DNA of 20,000 bases from an uncultured virus (IMG/VR IMGVR_UViG_3300001528_000811) (lineage: Duplodnaviria; Heunggongvirae; Uroviricota; Caudoviricetes). Location of the stretch: IMG/VR virus record IMGVR_UViG_3300001528_000811; one strand, given 5' to 3'. Shown piece after piece: positions 2,434 to 17,799 of the stretch; within the stretch, counting starts at the first letter, position 1, and each line of letters opens with the position of its first letter. The notes beneath the pieces are model-generated. The model saw nothing but the letters and a program-made list of their open reading frames with translations, was not told the origin of the DNA and did not search any database. Made by a program: the position numbers and the translations under genes.

Positions 2434-2466
2434 ATCTTTAATTTTTTTAATAGGGAGGTGGATTTA

Positions 2467-4809
2467 TTGATTTTAAATTACGATAAATTAGCAATTAAAG
2501 AATTAGCCATATCAGCATCTAAGTTTTATCAACATGAATTAGATAAAACTTTAAATTTAGAAGATTATATTGAAATTCTTTTAAAAAATGCACAAAAAGG
2601 TGATACTAACTTTATGGGTACCAATACTTTATATAAAAAAGTTGGTAGAAATAGAACAGTGAAAATAGCACCTAATATAAAAGAAATTTCAGATATAATA
2701 GATAGTATATCTGATAAACTAGATGATATAAAAGAGTCTAATTTAAGTTTAGGTAAAAAAATACAAAAGAGAAAAGAATTATTACAAGAAAATATAAAAC
2801 CTATAAAAATAGTAGAATTAAAAGATACAGATAAAATTTGGTGGGGAGATACAATCGATGGTATTAACATTCGATTTGGTTTATTAAATAATGATAGGTC
2901 AAAACCAGCTCTTGTAAATTTTGATAACAATTGTGTACATGGTAATGCAGGAGGAGAAACAGGACAAGGAAAATCTGTAATGGATGATTGTATTTTAATG
3001 TCTTGGATTTATGAATATCCACCTTGGGAATTGAAGATTTATTTTATAGATGCTAAAATGGCGGAGGGTTCTAAATACAATGGAATGTATAAAGTTCCAA
3101 CTATTAAAGATATAGGTATGACAGGTACAGGTAGTTATGCTTCAACTATATATAATTACGTATCAAAAGAAATGACTTTATTATATAGCATAAATTCAAA
3201 ATTAGAAATAAATAGTTTAAAAGCTTTAAGAGGTATGCTTGATATGGCAATACCTCGAACTATTATATTACATGATGAGATGACAGAAACTACTAATAGA
3301 TGTACAAATAAAGAATTAGAAGTTTTAATGAATTCTTTAACAACAATTGTAAATCAAGGTCGAGCAGTAGGAAATCATTTATTTTTAACAACACAAACTT
3401 TCGCAGGAGTATTAAGTAATAAAATACAAGGACAATTTGCTTTAGGTTTAAGTGTAGGAGCTAACCCAGATATTAGTGATAATTTAATAGGTAATGATAG
3501 AGCTACTGGATTAAAAAAGAAAAGAGGTTACTGTATTGTAAATAATAAAAGAAATATTAAAAATAATATAGATTTTAATCTAGAAGCAAAAGTAGCTTTT
3601 TGTCCAACAGGGGATGAAGCTGGTCAGAAGATATTTCTTAATCTCCTAAAAGTTGTGTCTGATTTTGCTGATGAAAAAGGAATTACAGAAAGGTCTACTG
3701 CTTTTAGCGAAGAGTCTTCAACTAACATAAAAAATTTTGATGAAGATTTAAAAGAAGTACAATTAAAAGCTGAAGAACAAATACAGCAATTTAATTTTAA
3801 TAATTTAACCACTTTGTTATTGGGAGATGGTATGGTTTATACAGGTTCTGTAAAAACCTATAAAGAATATTTAATATGGAATTATGAAAAAAAATCTAAC
3901 TTATTTATACATACTTCTAATATATCAAATTTAATTTATATGACAAGAATGGTAGGTAAAGCAATAGATAATTTAAATAAAGATATAACGCACTATGCTA
4001 TAATAGACAAAGCTATGCTATTTAAAGATAATATTATAAATAGTTCTATAAGCAAAGATTATACCGGAGATTTTAATGTTAATAGTTATTTAAAAGATAT
4101 AGAAGTAAGAAAAACTTTTTTACGATATGGGAATATATGCAGAGGAGAAAATAAGAAGTGGAACTTTTTTGATTTTATAGATTATTTAATATCCAAAAAT
4201 TTATTTGAATTTAAGATAGAATTTATAGAATTTAAAAAAACAATTTCAAGTTTAATTCTATTTGAAAAAGCAATCCCAGCTTTAATAGAACTTTGTCAAT
4301 CGAGAAATGTTTTTGAATATAATTTAAATAATAAGTCTTTAAAATATTTTAAAGAACATATAGAATTTTACACTTTAACAATGAGATGGATGATTAGATA
4401 TAATTTAATAAAATCTCGCATAACAAAAGATTATTTAAAACCCGAAGATTTACCTGTAAAAATCTTTTGGTTTTTTGGACCAAGTAATAATGATGGTATA
4501 AAAAATAAATGGGGAGAAATATCAAATGAATTTAATCAATTTTTAATTGAAGGTTCAGAAGTAGGTTTATTTAGTATTTTAATTGTAGATGAATTGGAGA
4601 ACGCTGCTGCAACAGTTAAATGTTGTAAACACTTAATAGCTTCAACTTTACACCCATCTATAGATAAATATAATTTAATTAATTTTAAAGAAAATGAAAA
4701 AATAAAAGGTAAGTTATTTTCTTATACTCAATGTGAGAATACAAATACACCTACAGTATATTTTAAACGTTATTATACCGGAAAAGATTTAACTGTTTTA
4801 AATTTTTAA
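2467..4809 (+). CDS. FtsK/SpoIIIE (EssC/EccC-like) P-loop ATPase with a degenerate second ATPase-like domain
   Basis: Walker A GETGQGKS (2953-2976), FtsK-type 'YPPWELKIYFIDAK' segment, Walker B IILHDE (3262-3279) and arginine-finger motif QGRAVGNHLFLTTQ (~3355-3396). Start reassigned from GTG 2458 to TTG 2467 because GGAGGTG (2454-2460) is a well-spaced RBS for it. Confidence 0.85.
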   Translation: MILNYDKLAIKELAISASKFYQHELDKTLNLEDYIEILLKNAQKGDTNFMGTNTLYKKVGRNRTVKIAPNIKEISDIIDSISDKLDDIKESNLSLGKKIQKRKELLQENIKPIKIVELKDTDKIWWGDTIDGINIRFGLLNNDRSKPALVNFDNNCVHGNAGGETGQGKSVMDDCILMSWIYEYPPWELKIYFIDAKMAEGSKYNGMYKVPTIKDIGMTGTGSYASTIYNYVSKEMTLLYSINSKLEINSLKALRGMLDMAIPRTIILHDEMTETTNRCTNKELEVLMNSLTTIVNQGRAVGNHLFLTTQTFAGVLSNKIQGQFALGLSVGANPDISDNLIGNDRATGLKKKRGYCIVNNKRNIKNNIDFNLEAKVAFCPTGDEAGQKIFLNLLKVVSDFADEKGITERSTAFSEESSTNIKNFDEDLKEVQLKAEEQIQQFNFNNLTTLLLGDGMVYTGSVKTYKEYLIWNYEKKSNLFIHTSNISNLIYMTRMVGKAIDNLNKDITHYAIIDKAMLFKDNIINSSISKDYTGDFNVNSYLKDIEVRKTFLRYGNICRGENKKWNFFDFIDYLISKNLFEFKIEFIEFKKTISSLILFEKAIPALIELCQSRNVFEYNLNNKSLKYFKEHIEFYTLTMRWMIRYNLIKSRITKDYLKPEDLPVKIFWFFGPSNNDGIKNKWGEISNEFNQFLIEGSEVGLFSILIVDELENAAATVKCCKHLIASTLHPSIDKYNLINFKENEKIKGKLFSYTQCENTNTPTVYFKRYYTGKDLTVLNF

Positions 4810-6993: not shown

Positions 6994-8766
6994 ATGTTAA
7001 AATATACAAAAACAGATTATGTTCCATCTTTGGAATTTAAAGCTTTAATGAGACGCCATTTAAATTTATATATGGATTATAATAAATTAAAATATGATAT
7101 AATGTATGACAATGGTATCTTAAATAATTTGTTTAAACAGATAAGCAATTATATTGAATTTTTTTCAGATTATAAGATAGAAAAATATACAGCTAATGAG
7201 ATATGTCCATTTTTAGTAAAGTATGAAAAAGTACCAGAAAATTTAATAATGAAGATAGGTAAAAAAGGTCCAATATATTCTTTAGATAAAACAATTAGAG
7301 AAAAATTAAATTCATATAATTATGTACCTGAATTGATGGATTTAATTAATGCTTATACTGAAATAGATACATCTGTGGATATTGGTAGAAGTCTTTTAAG
7401 GGCATTAATAAAAACAGATTTAATTTCAAACTGCGGTGATGAGATTTATTCTGCACCCTTTTCTTATAAAGAGTCTGATACCTTTAGAGTATATACTTCG
7501 GATATATCTGCAACAACTATTCCAATAAAATATGTAAAGCATATAACATCTCCAAAAGATTATTTGTTACTTTGGTGTGATTTTGCACAAATAGATTTGA
7601 GATGTGCTTGGAATATGATTTTACGTTATAATAATGAACAATCTGCAAATATAGATATAAATTCTGACACAATAGATTTTTATAAATTAGTAGCACAAGA
7701 TGTATCATTAACAAATAAAAGAAATTTTTCGGAAGAGAAATTTAAAGAGGATAGACATAAATATAAAAGAATTATATTATCAACTATAAATGGTGCTTCA
7801 GTACAAGCTTTAATAAATGATATAAAAGATAAAGTATTTTCTGAAAATTTATATAATTATATAAATACACAAAATAAAGCATATGTAGAATATAAAGAAA
7901 CAATAAATAATAATATAGCTTCAAAAGTTAATTTTTATATGCAAACTTATTTTGGAACAAAAATGTATATACCTTTTGATGGTTTAGATAAAGATATATG
8001 CACAGCATCTTTAAATAGACCTTTACAGGGAACATCAGCAGATATACAAAAATTAGTAACAGTAGATATTTATAATAAGATGCAATCTTTAATAAATGAC
8101 CCTACTAAATTTTTTCCTATTTTAAATAGGCATGATGAAACTTTATGGTATATACATAAAGAATGTTTGCCTTTTTTAAATGAGTTTAATAGCATGTGTA
8201 AAATACAAATAGATGATTGGGATTTAATTGAATTAGAGTGGGAGATAGGGTATAATTATAAAACACCTATAACTGATATAAAAAATAAGTATATAAATAA
8301 TTCAGAAGAAAAATTTATAAAATCTAATGAAATATTGCCTAAACCTTTTTTACAACCAATACCTTTAGTAACCTTTTATTGTCAAGAAAAAATTGAAGAT
8401 TATAATTTATATATAATTTCTTTAGATTGGGATAATTTAATTTTTGATGTTTACAAAGGTGATACAAATAAAGCAACTGAAAAATTTTTAAATAATTTAT
8501 TCAATAAACATCTTAAAAATAAAGAATTCACTAGATTAATTTTACATGGAAATCGTGAAGGTTATTTAAATTTTAATGATAAAGAAATTATATTCTCTAC
8601 AGAAAATAATAATACAAAATTCTTATATTCATGTAGATATATTATGAATAGATATATAGAAAGAGTACTTAAATTAAAAAAAACATTAGATTTAATCACT
8701 TCAGAAGTTTTTAAATTTACTCACCAGAATAAATATTATTATGAGGAGGGTATACCTTGGAAATAA
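6994..8766 (+). CDS. polA: Divergent family A DNA polymerase (polymerase domain plus C-terminal extension; no N-terminal exonuclease domains)
   Basis: Motif 2 DTFRVYT (cf. TGRLSS), motif A LLWCDFAQIDLR (7567-7602), motif B RHKYKRIILSTING (7753-7794), SLNRPLQGTSADIQK (cf. A.N.PIQG.AADI.K) and motif C NRHDE (HDE at 8131-8139). RBS GAGGTG 6984-6989. Confidence 0.88.
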   Translation: MLKYTKTDYVPSLEFKALMRRHLNLYMDYNKLKYDIMYDNGILNNLFKQISNYIEFFSDYKIEKYTANEICPFLVKYEKVPENLIMKIGKKGPIYSLDKTIREKLNSYNYVPELMDLINAYTEIDTSVDIGRSLLRALIKTDLISNCGDEIYSAPFSYKESDTFRVYTSDISATTIPIKYVKHITSPKDYLLLWCDFAQIDLRCAWNMILRYNNEQSANIDINSDTIDFYKLVAQDVSLTNKRNFSEEKFKEDRHKYKRIILSTINGASVQALINDIKDKVFSENLYNYINTQNKAYVEYKETINNNIASKVNFYMQTYFGTKMYIPFDGLDKDICTASLNRPLQGTSADIQKLVTVDIYNKMQSLINDPTKFFPILNRHDETLWYIHKECLPFLNEFNSMCKIQIDDWDLIELEWEIGYNYKTPITDIKNKYINNSEEKFIKSNEILPKPFLQPIPLVTFYCQEKIEDYNLYIISLDWDNLIFDVYKGDTNKATEKFLNNLFNKHLKNKEFTRLILHGNREGYLNFNDKEIIFSTENNNTKFLYSCRYIMNRYIERVLKLKKTLDLITSEVFKFTHQNKYYYEEGIPWK

Positions 8767-9497
8767 AAGAATTGATAGATTTTAAGGATAATTTAAGAAA
8801 AGTATTTATGAATATTTATATTAAATCTAATTATAATTGGTATTATTTTTTAAAATCTGCAGAACATTTAAGAAATGATGCTTTAAAGCAAAGTAAAGCT
8901 TTAAATGATACATCTTTGGCAGGACAAATAAGAGGTGAGATTGCAGAAATAATTTTAGAAGTAAAGATAATAGATTTTATCAAAAAAAACAGATTACCTT
9001 GGTTTATAGTAAAGTCTTTAACAATTCCTCGTACAGATAAGAAACAAAAAAAGACAACGGAATTGGATTTAACTTTATTCACACCAACACATATAATTCT
9101 TTTTGAAATAAAATCAAGAAAAGGAAAATATATTTTAAAAGATGAATGTAATTTAATCTCTAGTGGTTTTGATTATAATTCAAACGTATATAAACAAAAT
9201 ATAATGCATTTAGATAATTTAAGATATTTTCTGGGAGATGCAATCTTAACTATGAACAAAGAAAAACCTTTTAAGTTTGTTTTGTTTCTTGATGATATTT
9301 GTGATTGTGTTGATAAAAGAGATTTTAATAATAAACAAAAATATCAGCTTTTAAGATTAAATGATATAGATAAATATTTAGCAAATGAGTTAAAATATAC
9401 ATCACAAATTTGGGATATGCAAAAAATAAAAAATATTTTAATAAAGTTAAATAATGAGTCAGAAAATAATTTTTTAAAACATATGAATGTTAAATAA
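8757..9497 (+). CDS. NERD-domain / PD-(D/E)xK nuclease
   Basis: GEIAE ... TELDLTLFTPTHIILFEIKSRKG matches the NERD pattern (GE..E; EiD.l......i.viEvK...G), followed by a downstream Q...H (KQNIMH). TTG start with RBS GAGGAGG 8743-8749, overlapping the polymerase stop. Confidence 0.8.
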   Translation: MEIKELIDFKDNLRKVFMNIYIKSNYNWYYFLKSAEHLRNDALKQSKALNDTSLAGQIRGEIAEIILEVKIIDFIKKNRLPWFIVKSLTIPRTDKKQKKTTELDLTLFTPTHIILFEIKSRKGKYILKDECNLISSGFDYNSNVYKQNIMHLDNLRYFLGDAILTMNKEKPFKFVLFLDDICDCVDKRDFNNKQKYQLLRLNDIDKYLANELKYTSQIWDMQKIKNILIKLNNESENNFLKHMNVK

Positions 9498-9549: not shown

Positions 9550-9984
9550 ATGATAAAAATTGATTTAAATAAATTTAAGAAAGGTATGGAAATAATATTA
9601 GATGCTTCATTTCAACGAGTAACAGTTGAAACACTATATAAAAAATTATTTATTGAAAATACAGAAATAAATAATTTAATAATACAAGAATTAGAAAGTA
9701 TGAAAGATATACCTGAAGATTTAATTGTGAATTATAAAAAATTAGTTGATTTTTTATCAAATTGTAAAAAATTTAATTTTGATTTAAAATTTAATAATAT
9801 AAAAATAAAAAATATAATAAAAAAAGATATATCTACATTTGTAGAAAATAATTTTAATTTAGATATAAATAATATAGAAATTAAATATGCCATATGTGAA
9901 AATACAAAAATAGATTTGCCTATGAATACCTTACTAGTTGATTTAGAAAAAGGAGATAATTATGTATTCACAAATATTAACTAA
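9550..9984 (+). CDS. Hypothetical protein (144 aa)
   Basis: RBS AAGGAGGT 9533-9540. It overlaps the primase start. Confidence 0.8.
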   Translation: MIKIDLNKFKKGMEIILDASFQRVTVETLYKKLFIENTEINNLIIQELESMKDIPEDLIVNYKKLVDFLSNCKKFNFDLKFNNIKIKNIIKKDISTFVENNFNLDINNIEIKYAICENTKIDLPMNTLLVDLEKGDNYVFTNIN

Positions 9985-10723
9985 ATTAGTTAATAATATA
10001 TATGCAAGTGATTATTTAAAACAAAAAAATTTATTGGAATATTTTTGTAATAATATAAGAAAAATAGATTTAAATATTTTATTAGATTGTAAAGCTTTTA
10101 TAGTAATATCTGATAGATATTTATTAAATTTTGATAAGGATTTAGATATTTATCCTGAGTTAAATATATATCAAAATGGTAAGTGTAAATTTTATTCTCG
10201 TTTAATATTACCCATTTGGGGATTTGATAATCTGGTACATTCTTTCGTTATATATGATGATGGGCATAGAGATGGTGGGATAATATTAGATAGGTCAAAT
10301 TATACGGCATATGAAACTTTAAATAATTCTGGATTTGAAAAAGGTAGATTTTGGTTTTCACCTCCTAATACTTTTAGAAAAGCATATGAAGAAAAATATA
10401 TTGCAATAACAGATGGAGTTTTTGATGCTTTGGCTTTAAATGCTATTGATATTCCAACAGTTTCTTTATTATCAAGTAATTTAACAAAATACCATAGAGA
10501 ATATTTAAAGTTTATTAAAAATTGGGTAGTGTTTGCTGATAATGACAGAGCAGGGACAGAATTATTTAATTATTGTAAAGATTTTAATAATCATTGTATA
10601 CGTTATAAGTTTAATAAAGAATTTAAAGATATTGATGAGTATATAAAACTAAATGGGTTTAATAAAATAAAATCTAATATAAATAAAGCCAAATCTCAGG
10701 GATTTATGTTAGATATAAATTAG
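9962..10723 (+). CDS. DnaG-like TOPRIM primase catalytic core lacking the zinc-binding domain
   Basis: FYSRLILPI (cf. F..RimfPI), IAITDGVFDALAL (cf. iivEG.fD.l), DxD motif FADNDRAG (10538-10546) and KDIDEY (cf. KDpde). No CxxC/CHC2 motif at the N-terminus. Confidence 0.85.
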   Translation: MYSQILTKLVNNIYASDYLKQKNLLEYFCNNIRKIDLNILLDCKAFIVISDRYLLNFDKDLDIYPELNIYQNGKCKFYSRLILPIWGFDNLVHSFVIYDDGHRDGGIILDRSNYTAYETLNNSGFEKGRFWFSPPNTFRKAYEEKYIAITDGVFDALALNAIDIPTVSLLSSNLTKYHREYLKFIKNWVVFADNDRAGTELFNYCKDFNNHCIRYKFNKEFKDIDEYIKLNGFNKIKSNINKAKSQGFMLDIN

Positions 10724-11128: not shown

Positions 11129-12814
11129 ATGGATTTATTAAGTATTATCAACAGTATTACAGAAACAATTGAAAATGTAAAGAATGGAAACAAAGACAGC
11201 ACTATGTTTAATCAAGATGAGTTTTTTAATGCCGCAGATGTACAATTGAAAAAACATGCAGGTGAACCATTGGCAAAATTTTGTTGGATTTCTCCTGTAA
11301 TGTTAAATTTTCCTTTTAATCCAATTGATGCAAAGGATACAACATTTAATTCTAGAAACAAGTTTTTATTAAAAACTGATGCACTGTCTGGTTGGTTAGC
11401 TATAAAAGAAATAATGAGAACTAATAAAGAATTGCATGAAATGTATGCAAAATTACTTGGAGTATCTGTAGAAGAATATAGTCTTGAACCTGTTATAGAA
11501 TATTTACCTGATGGTACTTCTTATGAATACGTTTCAAAAGAAGATATGCAGTTAATTAATCTTTTTAAGATACCTGTACAATTATCTTTATTTACACAAA
11601 AAATGACAACTGTAGCAACAGGAAAATATGGAAGAGAATTTAGAACACCTTTAAGATTAGATGGTGAAGGTCAGATTTTGGAAGAAGATACAAATACAGT
11701 AGCCTATATGATATTAAAATTAGAACAACAAATACGTGCAGAAAAGTTAGGTTATTTTAATTTAAATCATGAAGGAATAACTTTAACATCAGATGATAAA
11801 GATAATAAAGAAGCTATAAGAAAATCAATGCAAATCAGCTATCCAAGACTATCAGGAGTTACATTGATGCAGGAACTAGTAATAGATAAATCGACAAACA
11901 AGTTAGCAACTTTAGCTCCAGAGGAAGCATCTTTTGATAAGACTTTAGTATATTCAAATTGTGCTAAAAAATTCCTTGAACAGCTTCAACGATTAATAGG
12001 AAAGAAAGATGATTATTATCCTAACTATCTTTTAATAAAGGTATCATATGGTAATGTAACTGATAAAAATTCTCCAGAATATTATATAAAGTTACATGAC
12101 TCTAGAGAGATAGTTCTGAATGATTTACCTAACTGGAGACATTACACAAAAAAATATATAGATTATTTTATGGAGAAAGAGAGTATAAAAAGTGTAGATA
12201 AAGCCATAAATGCACTTGCTAAAGCGATAAAATTTTCAGACCCAAGAGCAATGATAGGACAAACAACTTTAAGTGTAGGGGATACTTTTCATGACCCTTT
12301 AACCGGAGAAGAAAGGGAAGCTAATGAGTTAGATGTTCAAATAGCTAGAATACAGGATTTTGATAGAAATTATATGGAATATAATGCAAAAGGTATGGAA
12401 GGTAAATATGAGACAATAATAAAATCTAATGTAATGAAATATAGATATTTAGCTGACTCAGCAATGTTTGCAGCTTATGCACCTAGAGTAGCAGAAATAA
12501 GACAATTTATAACTCCTCAAATTTTTGAAGAGTTTGGTAAATTATTATCTAAAGCCTCACCTGCAACTTATGCAGAATTGAAAGATGGTTACAATAATAA
12601 TCGTTTAGCTATATCTTTTGCTAATACAATTGCAGGAACTGGAAAAGAAGCAACCAAAGAAGAAACAATGAAAGCTTTGGAAGAAATGAATAAATTAGAT
12701 GTTCAGGAAGCTCTTGAAGGAGATTTACCTGAAGAGGATACTAATGATGCTATGTCAGAAAATATTAATAATATTCCTGAAGGAATTGAAGTTAAGACTG
12801 TAGATTTAGCTTAA
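11129..12814 (+). CDS. Hypothetical protein (561 aa) with a strongly acidic C-terminal tail; possible ssDNA-binding or recombination protein
   Basis: RBS AGGAGG 11115-11120. Tail EEMNKLDVQEALEGDLPEEDTNDAMSE...DLA. It lies between the primase and SbcCD. The ORF is certain; the function is inferred. Confidence 0.6.
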   Translation: MDLLSIINSITETIENVKNGNKDSTMFNQDEFFNAADVQLKKHAGEPLAKFCWISPVMLNFPFNPIDAKDTTFNSRNKFLLKTDALSGWLAIKEIMRTNKELHEMYAKLLGVSVEEYSLEPVIEYLPDGTSYEYVSKEDMQLINLFKIPVQLSLFTQKMTTVATGKYGREFRTPLRLDGEGQILEEDTNTVAYMILKLEQQIRAEKLGYFNLNHEGITLTSDDKDNKEAIRKSMQISYPRLSGVTLMQELVIDKSTNKLATLAPEEASFDKTLVYSNCAKKFLEQLQRLIGKKDDYYPNYLLIKVSYGNVTDKNSPEYYIKLHDSREIVLNDLPNWRHYTKKYIDYFMEKESIKSVDKAINALAKAIKFSDPRAMIGQTTLSVGDTFHDPLTGEEREANELDVQIARIQDFDRNYMEYNAKGMEGKYETIIKSNVMKYRYLADSAMFAAYAPRVAEIRQFITPQIFEEFGKLLSKASPATYAELKDGYNNNRLAISFANTIAGTGKEATKEETMKALEEMNKLDVQEALEGDLPEEDTNDAMSENINNIPEGIEVKTVDLA

Positions 12815-13188: not shown

Positions 13189-14583
13189 ATGAAGTGGAAA
13201 AAAATAATATTATCTAATTGTCAATCTATAAAATATGCAGAATATGAATTATCTTCAAATTTAACAATAGTAGAAGCTCCTTCAGAAACCGGTAAAAGTA
13301 TTTATATAAAAATGTTAAGGCTTTTATGTAATTGGAATAGCATAAGCAAAGAAGAGCGATTATCTATTATACGTAGAGATATAAAGGGAGATTATATTGA
13401 AAATTGTGCATCAATGAGGATAGTATTAGAAAATGAACAGTCTTGTTTATTTTATGTTTATAAACAAGATTTATTAGATTGGAGATTACTCGACGAAAGT
13501 GATAATATAATTAAAAATGGTTTTGGGGAAGTACCTGAATTAGTAAGAAATTTTTTAGGTATAAAAAAAATAGAAAGTTTTAATAGAGTTATTTCTATAA
13601 TAGATAATGAAGAAAAAATTGCTTATGATAGCACAGACCCAGTTCAAAATTCTGAACTAGTTAAAATGTATACAACTCATGTTGAATTAGAAAATAGATT
13701 AAAAAATGCTGAGGAAGCATTAAAAGAACTTCAGAATAAAAAAACAAATGTTAGAAAACAAATAGATTATTTGGAAGAAGATTTGAGGTTAAATTACGGA
13801 AATTTTAATTTGGATTTTTTAGAAAATAGAATATCTTATTTAAAAGAAACAAATAATAAATTAAATATATTTTATAATTTAAAAAATATATTATTAAATA
13901 TAGCTAACAAGAAAATGCCAAATGTTATAGAGTTTAATAGTTTGGAAGAGCGAATAGTAAATTTAAAAAATAAAAAAAATATAATTTTGGCATTGCTTCC
14001 TTTATATTCTTTAAATCATAAAGTTCCAAATATTATACAGGTAAATGATTTAGAGAATATAAACACTACATTTAATAATTTAAGCGTTCAAGAAAAAATA
14101 TTAAATAATTTTTTAATTTTAAGAAAATGTTTAAATGATTTAATTAATAAAAAAATTATAGTTGAAGATTTAAATTTCTTAAATTTAAAATTTATAAATA
14201 ATATTTCATTATTCTTGAATAATTTAAGTGTCGAATTAAATAGAAAAAATAATTTAAATATAGTAGAAGAACCGAAATTAAATTTAGATAATTTGATGCA
14301 AATAATAAATATTCTATTTTATTTGTATACTGAAATGTCTAATAAAATTGACATAAATATAATAGGTGAAAATATTTTATTAGAAAATCTAAATACTTTA
14401 ACGATAAAAAGAAAATTATTATTTAGTCTAAATACGTTAAGATATAAATTAAAAACATTAGAAGATTTAGATTTAACTAAAACTGAAATTGATTATTTAT
14501 ATTCGGAGTATCTAAGAAACAATCCAACATGTCCAACATGTGGACAATTATTACAGTCTGAAATTGGAGAGTGTTGTATATGA
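13189..14583 (+). CDS. sbcC: SbcC/Rad50-like ATPase, N-terminal half (Walker A to zinc hook)
   Basis: N-terminus MKWKKIILSNCQSIK (cf. i.l.NF.S), Walker A APSETGKS (13276-13299), a coiled coil, and a CPTC zinc hook (14530-14541) 14 residues before the stop. This ORF has no Walker B. Confidence 0.85.
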   Translation: MKWKKIILSNCQSIKYAEYELSSNLTIVEAPSETGKSIYIKMLRLLCNWNSISKEERLSIIRRDIKGDYIENCASMRIVLENEQSCLFYVYKQDLLDWRLLDESDNIIKNGFGEVPELVRNFLGIKKIESFNRVISIIDNEEKIAYDSTDPVQNSELVKMYTTHVELENRLKNAEEALKELQNKKTNVRKQIDYLEEDLRLNYGNFNLDFLENRISYLKETNNKLNIFYNLKNILLNIANKKMPNVIEFNSLEERIVNLKNKKNIILALLPLYSLNHKVPNIIQVNDLENINTTFNNLSVQEKILNNFLILRKCLNDLINKKIIVEDLNFLNLKFINNISLFLNNLSVELNRKNNLNIVEEPKLNLDNLMQIINILFYLYTEMSNKIDINIIGENILLENLNTLTIKRKLLFSLNTLRYKLKTLEDLDLTKTEIDYLYSEYLRNNPTCPTCGQLLQSEIGECCI

Positions 14584-15686
14584 TATTTAATAATGTAAAA
14601 AATAAAACAACACATTTTCACATAGTAGGGGATTTACATTTATGGGATAAAAATATAAGGTCACATGTAAATTATATAAAAGAATGTGTAATAACTTTAA
14701 AAAAAATAATAAGTCATATAAAAGAAGCTAAAGAAAAATATCCCAATGATTTGCATTATATTATATTATTGGGTGATATTTTTAATAGAGAATTTTCCAA
14801 CAATGAACGAATTTATTTTAATTTATACTATCAATATTTTTTAATAATACGTGGAATAGTTAATGATATTTTTTGTGTAGTAGGTAATCATGAACAAAAT
14901 TATCCTAGAAATAATCCATTTTGGAATTTAATATCTCAAATAGAAGAAAATGTTGAACTTCATAATTCTCATTCAGTATTCGGATTATTACCTATATTAA
15001 GAGTAGTTGATAATATAGAAATTAATAATTGTCTATTACAATTTCAGCATTTTGGGGAGCAGGCAAAGCTAGATATCAATTTTAATAAATATAGATCTAA
15101 ATTTTTATTTGCTCATGAGATATATATGAATAGTCAATTATTATCTGTAATAGAAAATGAATTAGGTGAAAATCAAAAATACAAATATATAAAATGGATG
15201 GAAATATTGGAAGATGATTATAGAATATGTAATTATGATGAATGTTTTATGGGACATATTCATTCAATAATAGGGGATTGGAGAATAAGATGGAATAATG
15301 GAGAATTGACAGGACTTCATTATCTTGGTTCTCAAATACCTGTTAGTAAAGATGAATATATTCATACACCTAATTATAGATATATAAAAGATTTAATAAT
15401 TGCGCCGAATGGTGAGTTTAATATTCAAACAGATAAATATTTAATAACTCCTATAAATGAAGCTTTAAAAATAAATCAAATCAAAAAAGATGAAGTAGCT
15501 TATGAAAAAGTCAAAGAGAAGAAACAGCTGTTTCAAAAACATAAAGATATAAAGTTTAATGGACAAGACCCTATAGAAATTTTAACTAAAGAATATGAAA
15601 ATGATATAGAAAAGTTAGAAGTTTTTAATAAACTTGAAACAGGAATAATACCTGATAAATTAAAATCTAGAATGATTTTATATTAA
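14580..15686 (+). CDS. sbcD: SbcD/Mre11-like metallophosphoesterase nuclease
   Basis: Motifs GDLH, LGDIF, VGNHE, AHE, GHIH and YLGS in canonical order. ATG 14580 forms an ATGA overlap with the upstream stop (ORF track start is GTG 14571). Confidence 0.9.
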   Translation: MIFNNVKNKTTHFHIVGDLHLWDKNIRSHVNYIKECVITLKKIISHIKEAKEKYPNDLHYIILLGDIFNREFSNNERIYFNLYYQYFLIIRGIVNDIFCVVGNHEQNYPRNNPFWNLISQIEENVELHNSHSVFGLLPILRVVDNIEINNCLLQFQHFGEQAKLDINFNKYRSKFLFAHEIYMNSQLLSVIENELGENQKYKYIKWMEILEDDYRICNYDECFMGHIHSIIGDWRIRWNNGELTGLHYLGSQIPVSKDEYIHTPNYRYIKDLIIAPNGEFNIQTDKYLITPINEALKINQIKKDEVAYEKVKEKKQLFQKHKDIKFNGQDPIEILTKEYENDIEKLEVFNKLETGIIPDKLKSRMILY

Positions 15687-15731: not shown

Positions 15732-16046
15732 ATGAATAATAATGATATAATGAAAACTTTGAATATAAATAAAGAAGAGGAGATTTTGAAAGAAATTCAA
15801 ACTTTAAATCAGAAAAATAGAGAAGAACGAGCAGTATTAAACTCAACGATAGCACAGACAACAAATCAAATACAAGCATTGTTAAATGCTAATCCAGAAT
15901 ATGCTAATATGATTGACGTAAATAAATTATCTGATTTAGAATATGTTAATACTATTTTTAATAATTTTTTATTGATGTTTGAACGAGAGAAACAGGATTT
16001 TAATAAAAAGGCAACTGAAGCTTTAAATTTATTAAAGAATATTTAA
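15732..16046 (+). CDS. Small coiled-coil protein (104 aa), possible third piece of the split SbcC
   Basis: Two heptad-like helices separated by a Pro-containing turn (NANPEY). RBS GAGAGGA ~15718-15724. It lies between the SbcC halves. Confidence 0.65.
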   Translation: MNNNDIMKTLNINKEEEILKEIQTLNQKNREERAVLNSTIAQTTNQIQALLNANPEYANMIDVNKLSDLEYVNTIFNNFLLMFEREKQDFNKKATEALNLLKNI

Positions 16047-16060
16047 AAGGGTGTGAGAAC

Positions 16061-17143
16061 TTGAAATTTACTATAAATATAAAAAAAGAAACTTTAAGTT
16101 ATTTCAAATCTTTAATTTCAAGTGAAGGCATAAATTTAGTATTAGCTAGAAAAGATAAGGTTTTATTTTTAAGTGAAGATAAAAATGGAATTATAAAAAT
16201 TGTAAATTTTCATACCTCTTGTGATGAAGAGTTTAATTTTAAAATTTCAGCTTTAACATTAGAAAGTTTAGCAATGATAGGATATTTAACTTTTAAAAAT
16301 GATGAGTCATCTAACGAACTTTGTATAGGATATACATCAGATGAAAAATCTTCAAAAGTAGAAAAATTTAGACAGGTAGTGAGAGAGCCTTTAGAGATTA
16401 TGAGTTATGATGCTTATTCAGTTTATTTAAATATTTTTACATCTAATGAGACTATAACTGATAGTGAGAATTTTTCGCAATATTTTAATATAATGTTAAA
16501 AATGTGTGCTATAAATGAAGAAGGAATTCAATTCAAAAATAATTTAATATATAATATTTCAAACAATAAATATATCTATGTAGATGTACCAAATATGAAT
16601 GCGAATTTTGCTGTAACCAATAGCCATTTAAAGGAATTAATAAAAATAAAAGATACTCAAACTTTTACAAAATTTAATAATTATTTAATAGCAAAAACTA
16701 AAGGTATATATACTTTAGCTATAAGTACAGCATATATAAAAGAAGATTTTTATATACCGGAAGTCTTTAATAATGATAGTATGGCATCATTGCATTATAC
16801 AGCAAATTTAATAACTGTAAATGAATTTTTAAGAAGCATGTCAAAAACTACTATAAATAAATTAACAACAGTTAAATCTTATATAGATATAAAGAAGTCA
16901 ACTTTAAATTTAATTTTAGGGCAAATAAATTTCATTTTTAAATTACAAGATGGTAATTTAGATTTTAATAAAATTGATTTAGATATTTTGAATATTAAGT
17001 TATTTGATTTAATTGATTTATGTAAATTTTTAAATGGTTGTAAAATGGATAATGCAATAATACATTTTTTTGTTTATAAGAAAAATTTAAGATTAAATAT
17101 AAATGGAATAAATATTCTTTTAAGATTGGAAGATATTAAATAA
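16061..17143 (+). CDS. Probable divergent DNA sliding clamp (DnaN/beta-clamp-like), 360 aa
   Basis: Length typical of beta clamps, DnaN-like start MKFTINIKKETL, alternating helix and beta-strand pattern, hydrophobic terminal strand (INILLRL) and replication/repair context. Clamps have no diagnostic catalytic motif, so this is tentative. Confidence 0.5.
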   Translation: MKFTINIKKETLSYFKSLISSEGINLVLARKDKVLFLSEDKNGIIKIVNFHTSCDEEFNFKISALTLESLAMIGYLTFKNDESSNELCIGYTSDEKSSKVEKFRQVVREPLEIMSYDAYSVYLNIFTSNETITDSENFSQYFNIMLKMCAINEEGIQFKNNLIYNISNNKYIYVDVPNMNANFAVTNSHLKELIKIKDTQTFTKFNNYLIAKTKGIYTLAISTAYIKEDFYIPEVFNNDSMASLHYTANLITVNEFLRSMSKTTINKLTTVKSYIDIKKSTLNLILGQINFIFKLQDGNLDFNKIDLDILNIKLFDLIDLCKFLNGCKMDNAIIHFFVYKKNLRLNINGINILLRLEDIK

Positions 17144-17799
17144 TGAAGGATTTTTTGAGTAGAAATGATTTAATGAATAATATTTTAAATTTATATGAAA
17201 ATAAAAAAAATCGTATAGTTGAATACCAAATAAAAACAAGAAGATTAGCTGAATTAAAAAATGATTTAGATTTATTTAATAAATATGATTTAATTTATAC
17301 TAATTTAAGAGCTAGACTCCAATTAGCAATTTCATCTTATGAAAATGAAAGATTGGAAATACTAGTCTCTGAGGTTGAAAATGATTTAAGTTTAGTATTC
17401 CCAAATGATGACTTTACAGTTAAATTTGTTCCCGGAACTTTCAGAAATACACCTATTTTAAAATTATATTCTGGGCATAAAGGTGGAGTTTTACAACCAA
17501 CAAAATATCAACATGGAAGAATGTGTAGACAAGTTATAGGATTATCTATAACTTCAAATATACAATTATTACTTGGTTGTGAGATATTATTTTTAGATGA
17601 ACCTTTAAATAGCGGTGACTCAGAGTCTGAGAGACAAGCATCAGAAATAATAAAAAAATTGGTAGAAAATAATTATCAAATAATTTATACGGAACATAAA
17701 CATGAAGCATATAATGAATTGCCTCGTAGAGAAATTCATTTAAAAAGAGATACAGATACAAATGTAACTGTAGTGGATAAAGTTCTTGATTTTGAATAA
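17143..17799 (+). CDS. sbcC: SbcC/Rad50-like ATPase, C-terminal half (signature, Walker B, D-loop, H-loop)
   Basis: Short N-terminal coil, signature-position QHGRMCRQVIGLSI (from 17509), Walker B/D-loop ILFLDEPLNSGD (17584-17619) and H-loop IIYTEH (17680-17697). TAATG coupling with the upstream gene. Confidence 0.85.
   Translation: MKDFLSRNDLMNNILNLYENKKNRIVEYQIKTRRLAELKNDLDLFNKYDLIYTNLRARLQLAISSYENERLEILVSEVENDLSLVFPNDDFTVKFVPGTFRNTPILKLYSGHKGGVLQPTKYQHGRMCRQVIGLSITSNIQLLLGCEILFLDEPLNSGDSESERQASEIIKKLVENNYQIIYTEHKHEAYNELPRREIHLKRDTDTNVTVVDKVLDFE

Follow-up and report, generated by a model that had tools for sequence, protein, structure and literature searches.

An exonuclease-less subfamily of family A DNA polymerases with an altered steric gate, represented in the DNA of an uncultured, probable tailed phage

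Glu710 and Tyr766 of DNA polymerase I (Pol I) are the residues most used to explain sugar selection and the fidelity of base selection in family A polymerases, and both have been called universally conserved, with Glu710 as the steric gate (Hohlbein et al., PMC3715850). Both are absent from P0001, a 590-residue family A polymerase encoded in 20,000 nucleotides of DNA from an uncultured virus (IMG/VR record IMGVR_UViG_3300001528_000811). This whole stretch is called the window, and all position numbers refer to it. P0001 belongs to a subfamily that breaks the stated invariance in a heavily studied enzyme family, in a directly testable way. We give a probability of roughly 60% to the reading that P0001 is a primer-dependent replicative polymerase of an uncultured phage, with a remodelled pocket expected to discriminate less strongly against ribonucleotides and mispairs.

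The effects of altering these positions have been described in engineered enzymes. In the Klenow fragment, E710A, E710Q and Y766A have a mutator phenotype, Y766F resembles the wild type, the size and shape of residue 766 matter, and the Glu710-Tyr766 hydrogen bond plays only a small part in the stability of the closed complex (PMC3715850). E615G is the steric-gate change in Taq variants that synthesize RNA and xeno nucleic acids (XNA) (PMC9738464). The engineered mutants (Taq E615G/E615D, Klenow E710A/Q and Y766A/S, Bst Y714S) are altered at the same positions as P0001 and show more use of ribonucleoside triphosphates (rNTPs) or 2'-modified nucleotides, or a mutator phenotype. Each of those substitutions was made singly, in the laboratory and in a Pol I enzyme, whereas the changes in P0001 are natural, combined and conserved over a long divergence. 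Patel and Loeb reportedly found (J Biol Chem 2000) a readier incorporation of rNTPs by Taq E615D.

Viral PolAs commonly carry Leu762 as a natural variant (PMC6302109, PMC9069017), and virome enzymes with this residue do extend primers (PMC9069017). In the 2023 PolA reclassification, the gate (A2) and B4 belong to a set of highly conserved positions within which B3 varies most, and the Phe at B4 in DpoZ is termed a unique substitution (Czernecki 2023, PMC10201439). The Leu762 groups (virioplankton; SPO2-, KPP25- and phiJL001-like; Nasko 2018, Keown 2022, Czernecki 2023) share with the subfamily of P0001 the Leu at 762/B3, a viral (for P0001, probably viral) origin and richness in metagenomes. 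In the accessible parts of these papers variation is treated at 762 only, and the clusters carry an exonuclease domain, which the subfamily of P0001 lacks.

On mobile elements, family A polymerases that lack an exonuclease can prime synthesis de novo with the help of a small partner (PMC7581432, PMC10061031). CCPol of SCCmec, the only polymerase of family A for which priming is known (together with MP), has kept both E710 and F762 (PMC7581432). CCPol-MP and the related Pol-SSB pairs of Bacillota mobile elements resemble P0001 in having a family A domain without functional exonuclease on a mobile- or viral-looking replication module. However, CCPol retains three exonuclease helices, which bind MP, whereas P0001 starts at the thumb with no remnant exonuclease segment; and a small OB-fold gene and the Cch2 helicase follow CCPol, whereas a NERD gene (246 residues), a 144-residue open reading frame (ORF) and a Toprim gene follow P0001. 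Caudoviricetes also have divergent family A polymerases whose exonuclease has been lost or inactivated: divPolA1 has a truncated thumb and an exonuclease domain that is present but inactivated, and divPolA2 has no homologous thumb and is found together with a replicative PolB (Virol J 2024, PMC11348598). P0001 differs from both in its full thumb, aligned to Klenow from residue 5.

With Klenow, Bst and Taq, P0001 shares the thumb-palm-fingers fold and the equivalents of D705, D882, E883, R754, K758, R668 and Q849. It differs from Pol I, to which it is 16-18% identical, in lacking both a 3'-5' exonuclease domain, active or vestigial, and a 5' nuclease domain; in carrying Asp, Leu, Tyr, Asn and Thr at the positions of E710, F762, H734, Y766 and R841, respectively; and in an extra C-terminal domain of about 135 residues.

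Pocket residues of P0001 and their conservation

The P0001 frame is free of internal stops across 6994-8766. Over residues 88-392 the translation scores 55.3 bits with PF00476 (DNA_pol_A; cut-off 34.3), and it also matches phrog_17, a DNA polymerase family. Residue equivalences were read from alignments made by phmmer with chains of the Klenow fragment, in which the Pol I number is the chain index + 323; that of R165 comes from a family-profile alignment. A word-index search of 5.8 billion proteins returned two close homologues only, P0002 (61% identity) and P0003 (54%). A HMMER scan of 1.84 billion cluster representatives returned 223 proteins at E<=1e-3, 169 of them at E<=1e-10, and the subfamily comprises about 220 cluster representatives. 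Conservation was scored in an alignment of 152 sequences, namely the best 150 of the 223 HMMER matches with P0001 and P0002 (median length 596 residues), to which the counts below refer.

6994..8766, + strand: family A DNA polymerase gene (P0001), 590 residues, without an exonuclease domain (ORF, translation, PF00476, AlphaFold2 model)
7486..7488, + strand: R165, equivalent to Klenow R668 (TGR motif); Arg in 150, gap in 2
7579..7581 (gat), + strand: D196, catalytic Asp of motif A, Klenow D705; Asp in 151, gap in 1
7594..7596 (gat), + strand: D201, steric-gate position, Klenow E710, Asp for Glu; Asp in 148, Glu in 3, gap in 1
7681..7683 (tat), + strand: Y230, Klenow H734, Tyr for His; Tyr in 152
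7753..7794, + strand: motif B (O-helix), R254-x3-K258-x3-L262-x3-N266-G267, with R254 (aga, 7753-7755) = R754, K258 (aaa, 7765-7767) = K758, L262 (tta, 7777-7779) = F762, N266 (aat, 7789-7791) = Y766 and G267 (ggt, 7792-7794); Arg, Lys and Leu each in 152; at 266 Tyr in 146, Asn in 4 (P0001, P0002, P0003, P0043), Phe in 2
8026..8028, + strand: Q345, Klenow Q849; Gln in 152
8131..8139, + strand: motif C, H380-D381-E382 = Klenow H881-D882-E883; D381 in 152, E382 in 151, H380 in 148

The altered residues of motifs A and B, first noticed in a first-pass annotation of the DNA, are real: the codons and the Klenow alignment agree on D201, L262 and N266. That annotation had also described the catalytic Asp residues, the O-helix Arg and Lys and the R668 and Q849 equivalents as intact, and each of these aligns to its Klenow counterpart and is invariant or nearly so. 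Two pocket differences are added here, Y230 at H734 and Thr337 at the position of R841 (phmmer alignment). His734 of Pol I contacts the phosphates of the deoxyribonucleoside triphosphate. The invariant set R254, K258, Q345 and D381 was recovered in an independent MAFFT alignment of 76 members. By these residues P0001 is a family A DNA polymerase with the full set of catalytic residues; Glu710 and Tyr766 are conserved features of the family and not membership criteria, and the assignment of P0001 stands.

Both close homologues carry DFAQIDLR and LSTINGAS, and so keep Asp and Asn; neither has the Glu and Tyr that the first-pass annotation had named as evidence against an altered pocket. The changes at two positions called universally conserved (PMC3715850) are what a decaying or mis-sequenced gene could display, its odd residues being lesions in a non-functional copy. 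This explanation is extremely improbable. The frame is intact, the catalytic residues are invariant or nearly so across the alignment, and the structural model described below reaches a pLDDT of 94.5. Because the same residues are kept in homologues at 54-61% identity, neither chance nor sequencing error accounts for D201 and N266, and decay is for practical purposes excluded.

Two of the three changes first noticed do not single out this gene. The Glu-to-Asp and Phe-to-Leu changes are subfamily-wide (148/152 and 152/152), and Asp710, Leu762 and Tyr734 are, as judged from the alignment, hallmarks of a whole subfamily met in metagenomes alone and not of P0001 by itself. Relatives at 30-37% identity combine the gate Asp with the ordinary Tyr766. 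As far as the aligned sequences tell, Y766N alone is lineage-specific, restricted to the small clade of P0001 and the separate P0043, and it is retained in the P0001 lineage over the divergence separating P0001 from its two close homologues.

Position 200, the equivalent of Ile709, is Ser in 61 sequences, Ile in 56, Ala in 27, Val in 4, Phe in 2, Met in 1 and a gap in 1. The 88 relatives with Ser or Ala are concentrated in one large branch of the tree. In Taq, hydrophilic changes at I614 favour rNTP use.

A FastTree phylogeny was built from 143 members of at least 500 residues (nine shorter rows were dropped), with two ordinary PolAs (loci L001 and L002) as outgroup. A long stem leads to the subfamily, which is a single clade (support 100). 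The three members with Glu group together at its base (support 99), and the Asp clade comprises 140 tips (support 93). Within it, the P0001 clade (support 100) falls inside a group with P0004 and P0007 (support 99), both of which have Tyr, and P0043 is a second, separate Asn lineage. The nested positions, together with the conservation of the residues, therefore suggest that Glu to Asp, Phe to Leu and His to Tyr are old and that Tyr to Asn came later, in the P0001 lineage.

None of 20 subfamily clusters looked up bears a name or accession. A word-index search with alignment A2 matched ordinary Pol I and the three close proteins but nothing else, and a BFVD structure search returned general phage PolAs at 11-17% identity and nothing closer. 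Literature searches found no published description of the subfamily, although one may still exist in print.

Fold, architecture and the C-terminal domain

The structure of P0001 was predicted with AlphaFold2 on the 76-sequence alignment (pLDDT 94.5, pTM 0.91).

7006..8289, + strand: complete polymerase domain (thumb, palm, fingers), residues about 5-432 (VIA-align, Foldseek)
8362..8763, + strand: C-terminal domain, residues 457-590, beta3-alpha-beta3-alpha-beta (AlphaFold2 models, VIA-align)

In VIA-align comparisons, residues 5-425 superpose on Pol I 520-927 (Klenow, 1d9d_A: Z 25.3, root-mean-square deviation 3.5, 372 aligned), followed by Pol theta (Z 23.8) and T7 DNA polymerase (Z 20.2); Pol nu and the apicoplast polymerase matched too. 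Foldseek matched the Bst large fragment (E 1.7e-18, 434 columns). T7 RNA polymerase and mitochondrial RNA polymerase reached Z 8.4 and 9.1, against 25.3 for Klenow. An identity as a T7-like single-subunit RNA polymerase was rejected on this ground, the fold being far nearer Pol I, and also on the gate residue, which is Asp; T7-like single-subunit RNA polymerases have a small residue at the gate.

PF00476 was matched in 66 of the 76 members and no other Pfam family, including any exonuclease family, in any of the 76. As the model aligns from residue 5 onto Pol I 520, P0001 starts at the thumb, without an exonuclease domain. The upstream 220-residue ORF was considered as a split exonuclease, and it has no family match and no DxE-type motif by eye. 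On the models, the architecture of the subfamily is that of a protein of about 590 residues with a polymerase domain, neither a 3'-5' nor a 5'-3' exonuclease, and an extra C-terminal domain. As far as the accessible text of the 2023 PolA reclassification goes, a polymerase joined to a C-terminal RNase H-like fold does not occur in it (PMC10201439).

Folded alone, the C-terminal domain is predicted with a pLDDT of 90.7. Its best VIA-align matches are all RNase H-like folds (Argonaute PIWI at Z 6.4, then retroviral integrase cores, IscB, the UvrC C-terminal domain and Prp8 RH); all these Z scores lie in the range that the tool rates common, so that the fold match is weak, and Foldseek returned nothing for the domain at E<=0.001. 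An alignment anchored on the DDW motif covered 144 C-terminal regions, 8 of the 152 being dropped for length. Past P451 no catalytic-type acidic column exists across the 144; the only column with Asp plus Glu at 50% or more is a loop position that is Trp in P0001. A role as an exonuclease or DEDD nuclease was ruled out, since the conserved carboxylates are missing, and the domain is best described as a putative non-catalytic module with a weak RNase H-like fold. It is curious that a PolA lacking the usual N-terminal exonuclease, which is itself RNase H-like, should end in an RNase H-like fold.

Nucleotide selection, priming and replication

The proposed reading is that P0001 serves as the working, primer-dependent replicase of an AT-rich, probably tailed-phage genome. 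The subfamily pocket would have been remodelled once, early, by Glu710 to Asp, Phe762 to Leu and His734 to Tyr, and then kept, with Ile709 also replaced by Ser or Ala in many members; Tyr766 to Asn would have been added later by the small clade of P0001 and retained. Judging from side-chain length, the shorter Asp may leave extra room at the sugar 2' position, and loss of Tyr766 would leave the template base without its stacking side chain and residue 710 without its partner. From a roomier 2' position together with the loss of Tyr766, weaker discrimination against ribonucleotides and mispairs than in Pol I-type enzymes would be expected. Built-in proofreading is predicted to be absent from P0001, and relaxed sugar and base selection is plausible.

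The main alternative, which we hold to be possible, though on the unlikely side, is that selectivity is ordinary. The pocket would be co-adapted, with Asp201 still gating the 2' position through the backbone and Tyr230/Leu262; the enzyme would be a divergent, exonuclease-less phage replicase, and Asn266 would replace Tyr766 at little cost in the P0001 clade. Positions 710, 734 and 762 changed together, which suggests co-adaptation, and the changes are old and have become fixed in about 150 diverse representatives, an age and fixation that fit this alternative and a permissive pocket equally well. The wild-type-like behaviour of Klenow Y766F and the minor role of the Glu710-Tyr766 hydrogen bond (PMC3715850) also agree with it, as does primer extension by virome Leu762 enzymes (PMC9069017). 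Against it stand the mutator phenotypes of E710A, E710Q and Y766A and the importance of size and shape at 766 (PMC3715850); Tyr is a far larger residue than Asn, and P0001 has no exonuclease domain to correct errors.

The first-pass annotation had further suggested a role in priming, which the genes that follow P0001 do not favour.

8757..9497, + strand: NERD nuclease-related protein, 246 residues (PF08378, 1.6e-10); the listed TTG start overlaps the polymerase stop codon
9550-9984, + strand: 144-residue ORF between the NERD and Toprim genes
9962..10723, + strand: DnaG-type Toprim (primase-like) protein, 253 residues (PF13155, 2.9e-8; phrog_849 DNA primase, 5.5e-12; TIGR01391 dnaG, 3.9e-11, below cut-off)

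The Toprim gene lies 1.2 kilobases (kb) downstream of the polymerase gene. Primers would most likely come from its product and not from the polymerase, and the presence of a DnaG-type Toprim protein in the replication module therefore makes de novo priming by P0001 unlikely. The 144-residue ORF ends 23 bases inside the Toprim start, and the pair may be parts of one primase or of a frameshifted gene.

More generally, P0001 might be specialized for other synthesis and not be the main replicase: it could be a primase-polymerase of the CCPol-MP kind, act as an RNA polymerase, or polymerize nucleotides modified in the sugar or the base. Priming by exonuclease-less family A polymerases of mobile elements with a small partner (PMC7581432, PMC10061031) offers a precedent. 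The gate residue is smaller than Glu, the preceding residue is Ser or Ala in 88 of the 152 sequences, and the C-terminal domain is without an assigned role. However, CCPol keeps E710 and F762, so that pocket changes are no signature of priming (PMC7581432). A separate Toprim/DnaG-like gene is nearby, the next gene encodes a 246-residue NERD protein and not a small ORF such as the MP gene after CCPol, and the full thumb and a fold nearer Pol I (Z 25.3) than RNA polymerases (8.4-9.1) also stand against it. We regard such specialization as quite improbable.

Several points weigh against a permissive phage replicase. The extra room at C2' is deduced from side-chain length, and the backbone or neighbouring residues may compensate for it. 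Fixation of a change throughout a large and old family speaks for an enzyme that is well adapted and not necessarily sloppy. The order of changes comes from a quick tree (FastTree only) whose root rests on two outgroup sequences. In the Toprim protein, whose primase role is putative, no zinc-binding domain can be recognised, and its score falls far short of the dnaG cut-off. The phage origin is based on gene content and on Atlas labels, for which few members have a record; the 20-kb window holds no capsid or terminase gene, and the subfamily was not found in INPHARED phages, PLSDB, IMG/VR, GTDB genomes or JGI contigs.

A bolder version of the permissive reading, which we consider doubtful, would have the whole subfamily, with a widened gate (Asp710, often with Ser/Ala709) and no proofreading, incorporate ribonucleotides or 2'-modified nucleotides in normal genome replication, the P0001 clade being the extreme case. 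If true, these enzymes would be natural counterparts of the engineered RNA- and XNA-synthesising Taq variants, and the phage genomes would tolerate or exploit embedded ribonucleotides. In either event the subfamily is a ready-made test of whether Glu710 and Tyr766 are truly required or whether the pocket can be built another way. Permissive enzymes would be natural starting points for the synthesis of RNA or modified nucleic acids at moderate temperature, and would raise the question of how a phage copes with a low-fidelity, non-proofreading replicase; non-permissive ones would represent a second structural solution to the steric gate.

Neighbouring genes and provenance

The window is about 22% G+C, and its 17 large ORFs all lie on the + strand. 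Each 1-kb segment has a positive GC skew and the cumulative skew rises throughout, which fits one direction of replication and transcription over the 20 kb. Reading the DNA in code 4 or code 11 leaves the main ORFs upstream of 13 kb unaltered. We think it quite likely that the window is the replication module of an uncultured, probably tailed, AT-rich phage. The nearest Atlas clusters, including a 593-residue cluster matched over residues 1-585, are labelled Viruses/Uroviricota at 75-100%, and subfamily members occur on metagenome contigs of about 60-310 kb, with one of 612 kb.

Searches for the subfamily in reference collections returned ordinary enzymes or nothing. No relatives of P0001, alignment A1, P0016 or P0007 were found in GTDB contigs, IMG/VR or JGI metagenome contigs. 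Two degenerate motif A DNA patterns run over IMG/VR gave 0 and 2 stretches, both of the latter being chance matches: one lies in an unrelated ORF, the other inside a T7-like primase-helicase gene whose adjacent PolA has Glu at the gate. With tblastn, P0001 found only ordinary PolAs in phages and plasmids, at 22-27% identity (H21 and H25 read DYSQIELR and DFSQIELR); P0045 and P0016 found nothing in phages, nor P0045 in plasmids. At the sensitivity used, tblastn of three members against 50,697 GenBank phage records yielded no subfamily member.

Further genes of the window are as follows.

2458-4809, + strand: FtsK/SpoIIIE/EssC-like ATPase, 783 residues, upstream of the polymerase (phrog_1358, E 6.5e-25)
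13189-14583, + strand: candidate half of Rad50/SbcC, with a Walker A motif (PSETGKS), a long middle part resembling a coiled coil, and CPTCG at the C-terminus
14571-15686, + strand: candidate Mre11/SbcD phosphoesterase, with GDLH, GDIF and GNHE motifs (phrog_547, E 0.0053)
17143-17799, + strand: other candidate half of Rad50/SbcC, with a Walker B-like FLDEP and weak ABC/SbcC profile hits

By their motifs the last three look like Mre11/SbcD and a Rad50/SbcC split in two; profile support is weak for all of them (for the Rad50/SbcC halves phrog_77, E 0.052). Two unrelated ORFs (15732-16046 and 16061-17143) separate the Mre11-like gene from the second Rad50-like half. No SNF2, RecB or UvrD helicase was recognised in the window with Pfam, PHROGs or NCBIfam, several large ORFs being unannotated. 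The tblastn relatives of the FtsK-like ATPase are mostly in large Bacillus phages (85 of 105 phage records), with EssC genes of plasmids besides.

Downstream of the Toprim gene, 11129-12814 encodes a 561-residue protein whose sole homologues are 59% and 52% identical; one of them shares a 194,667-base contig with the polymerase homologue P0002, and the module is therefore conserved in at least one related element. This orphan protein ends in a strongly acidic C-terminal tail, as do many single-stranded-DNA-binding proteins. The ORF at 16061-17143, inside the replication and recombination block, encodes a 360-residue protein of sliding-clamp size with no family match.

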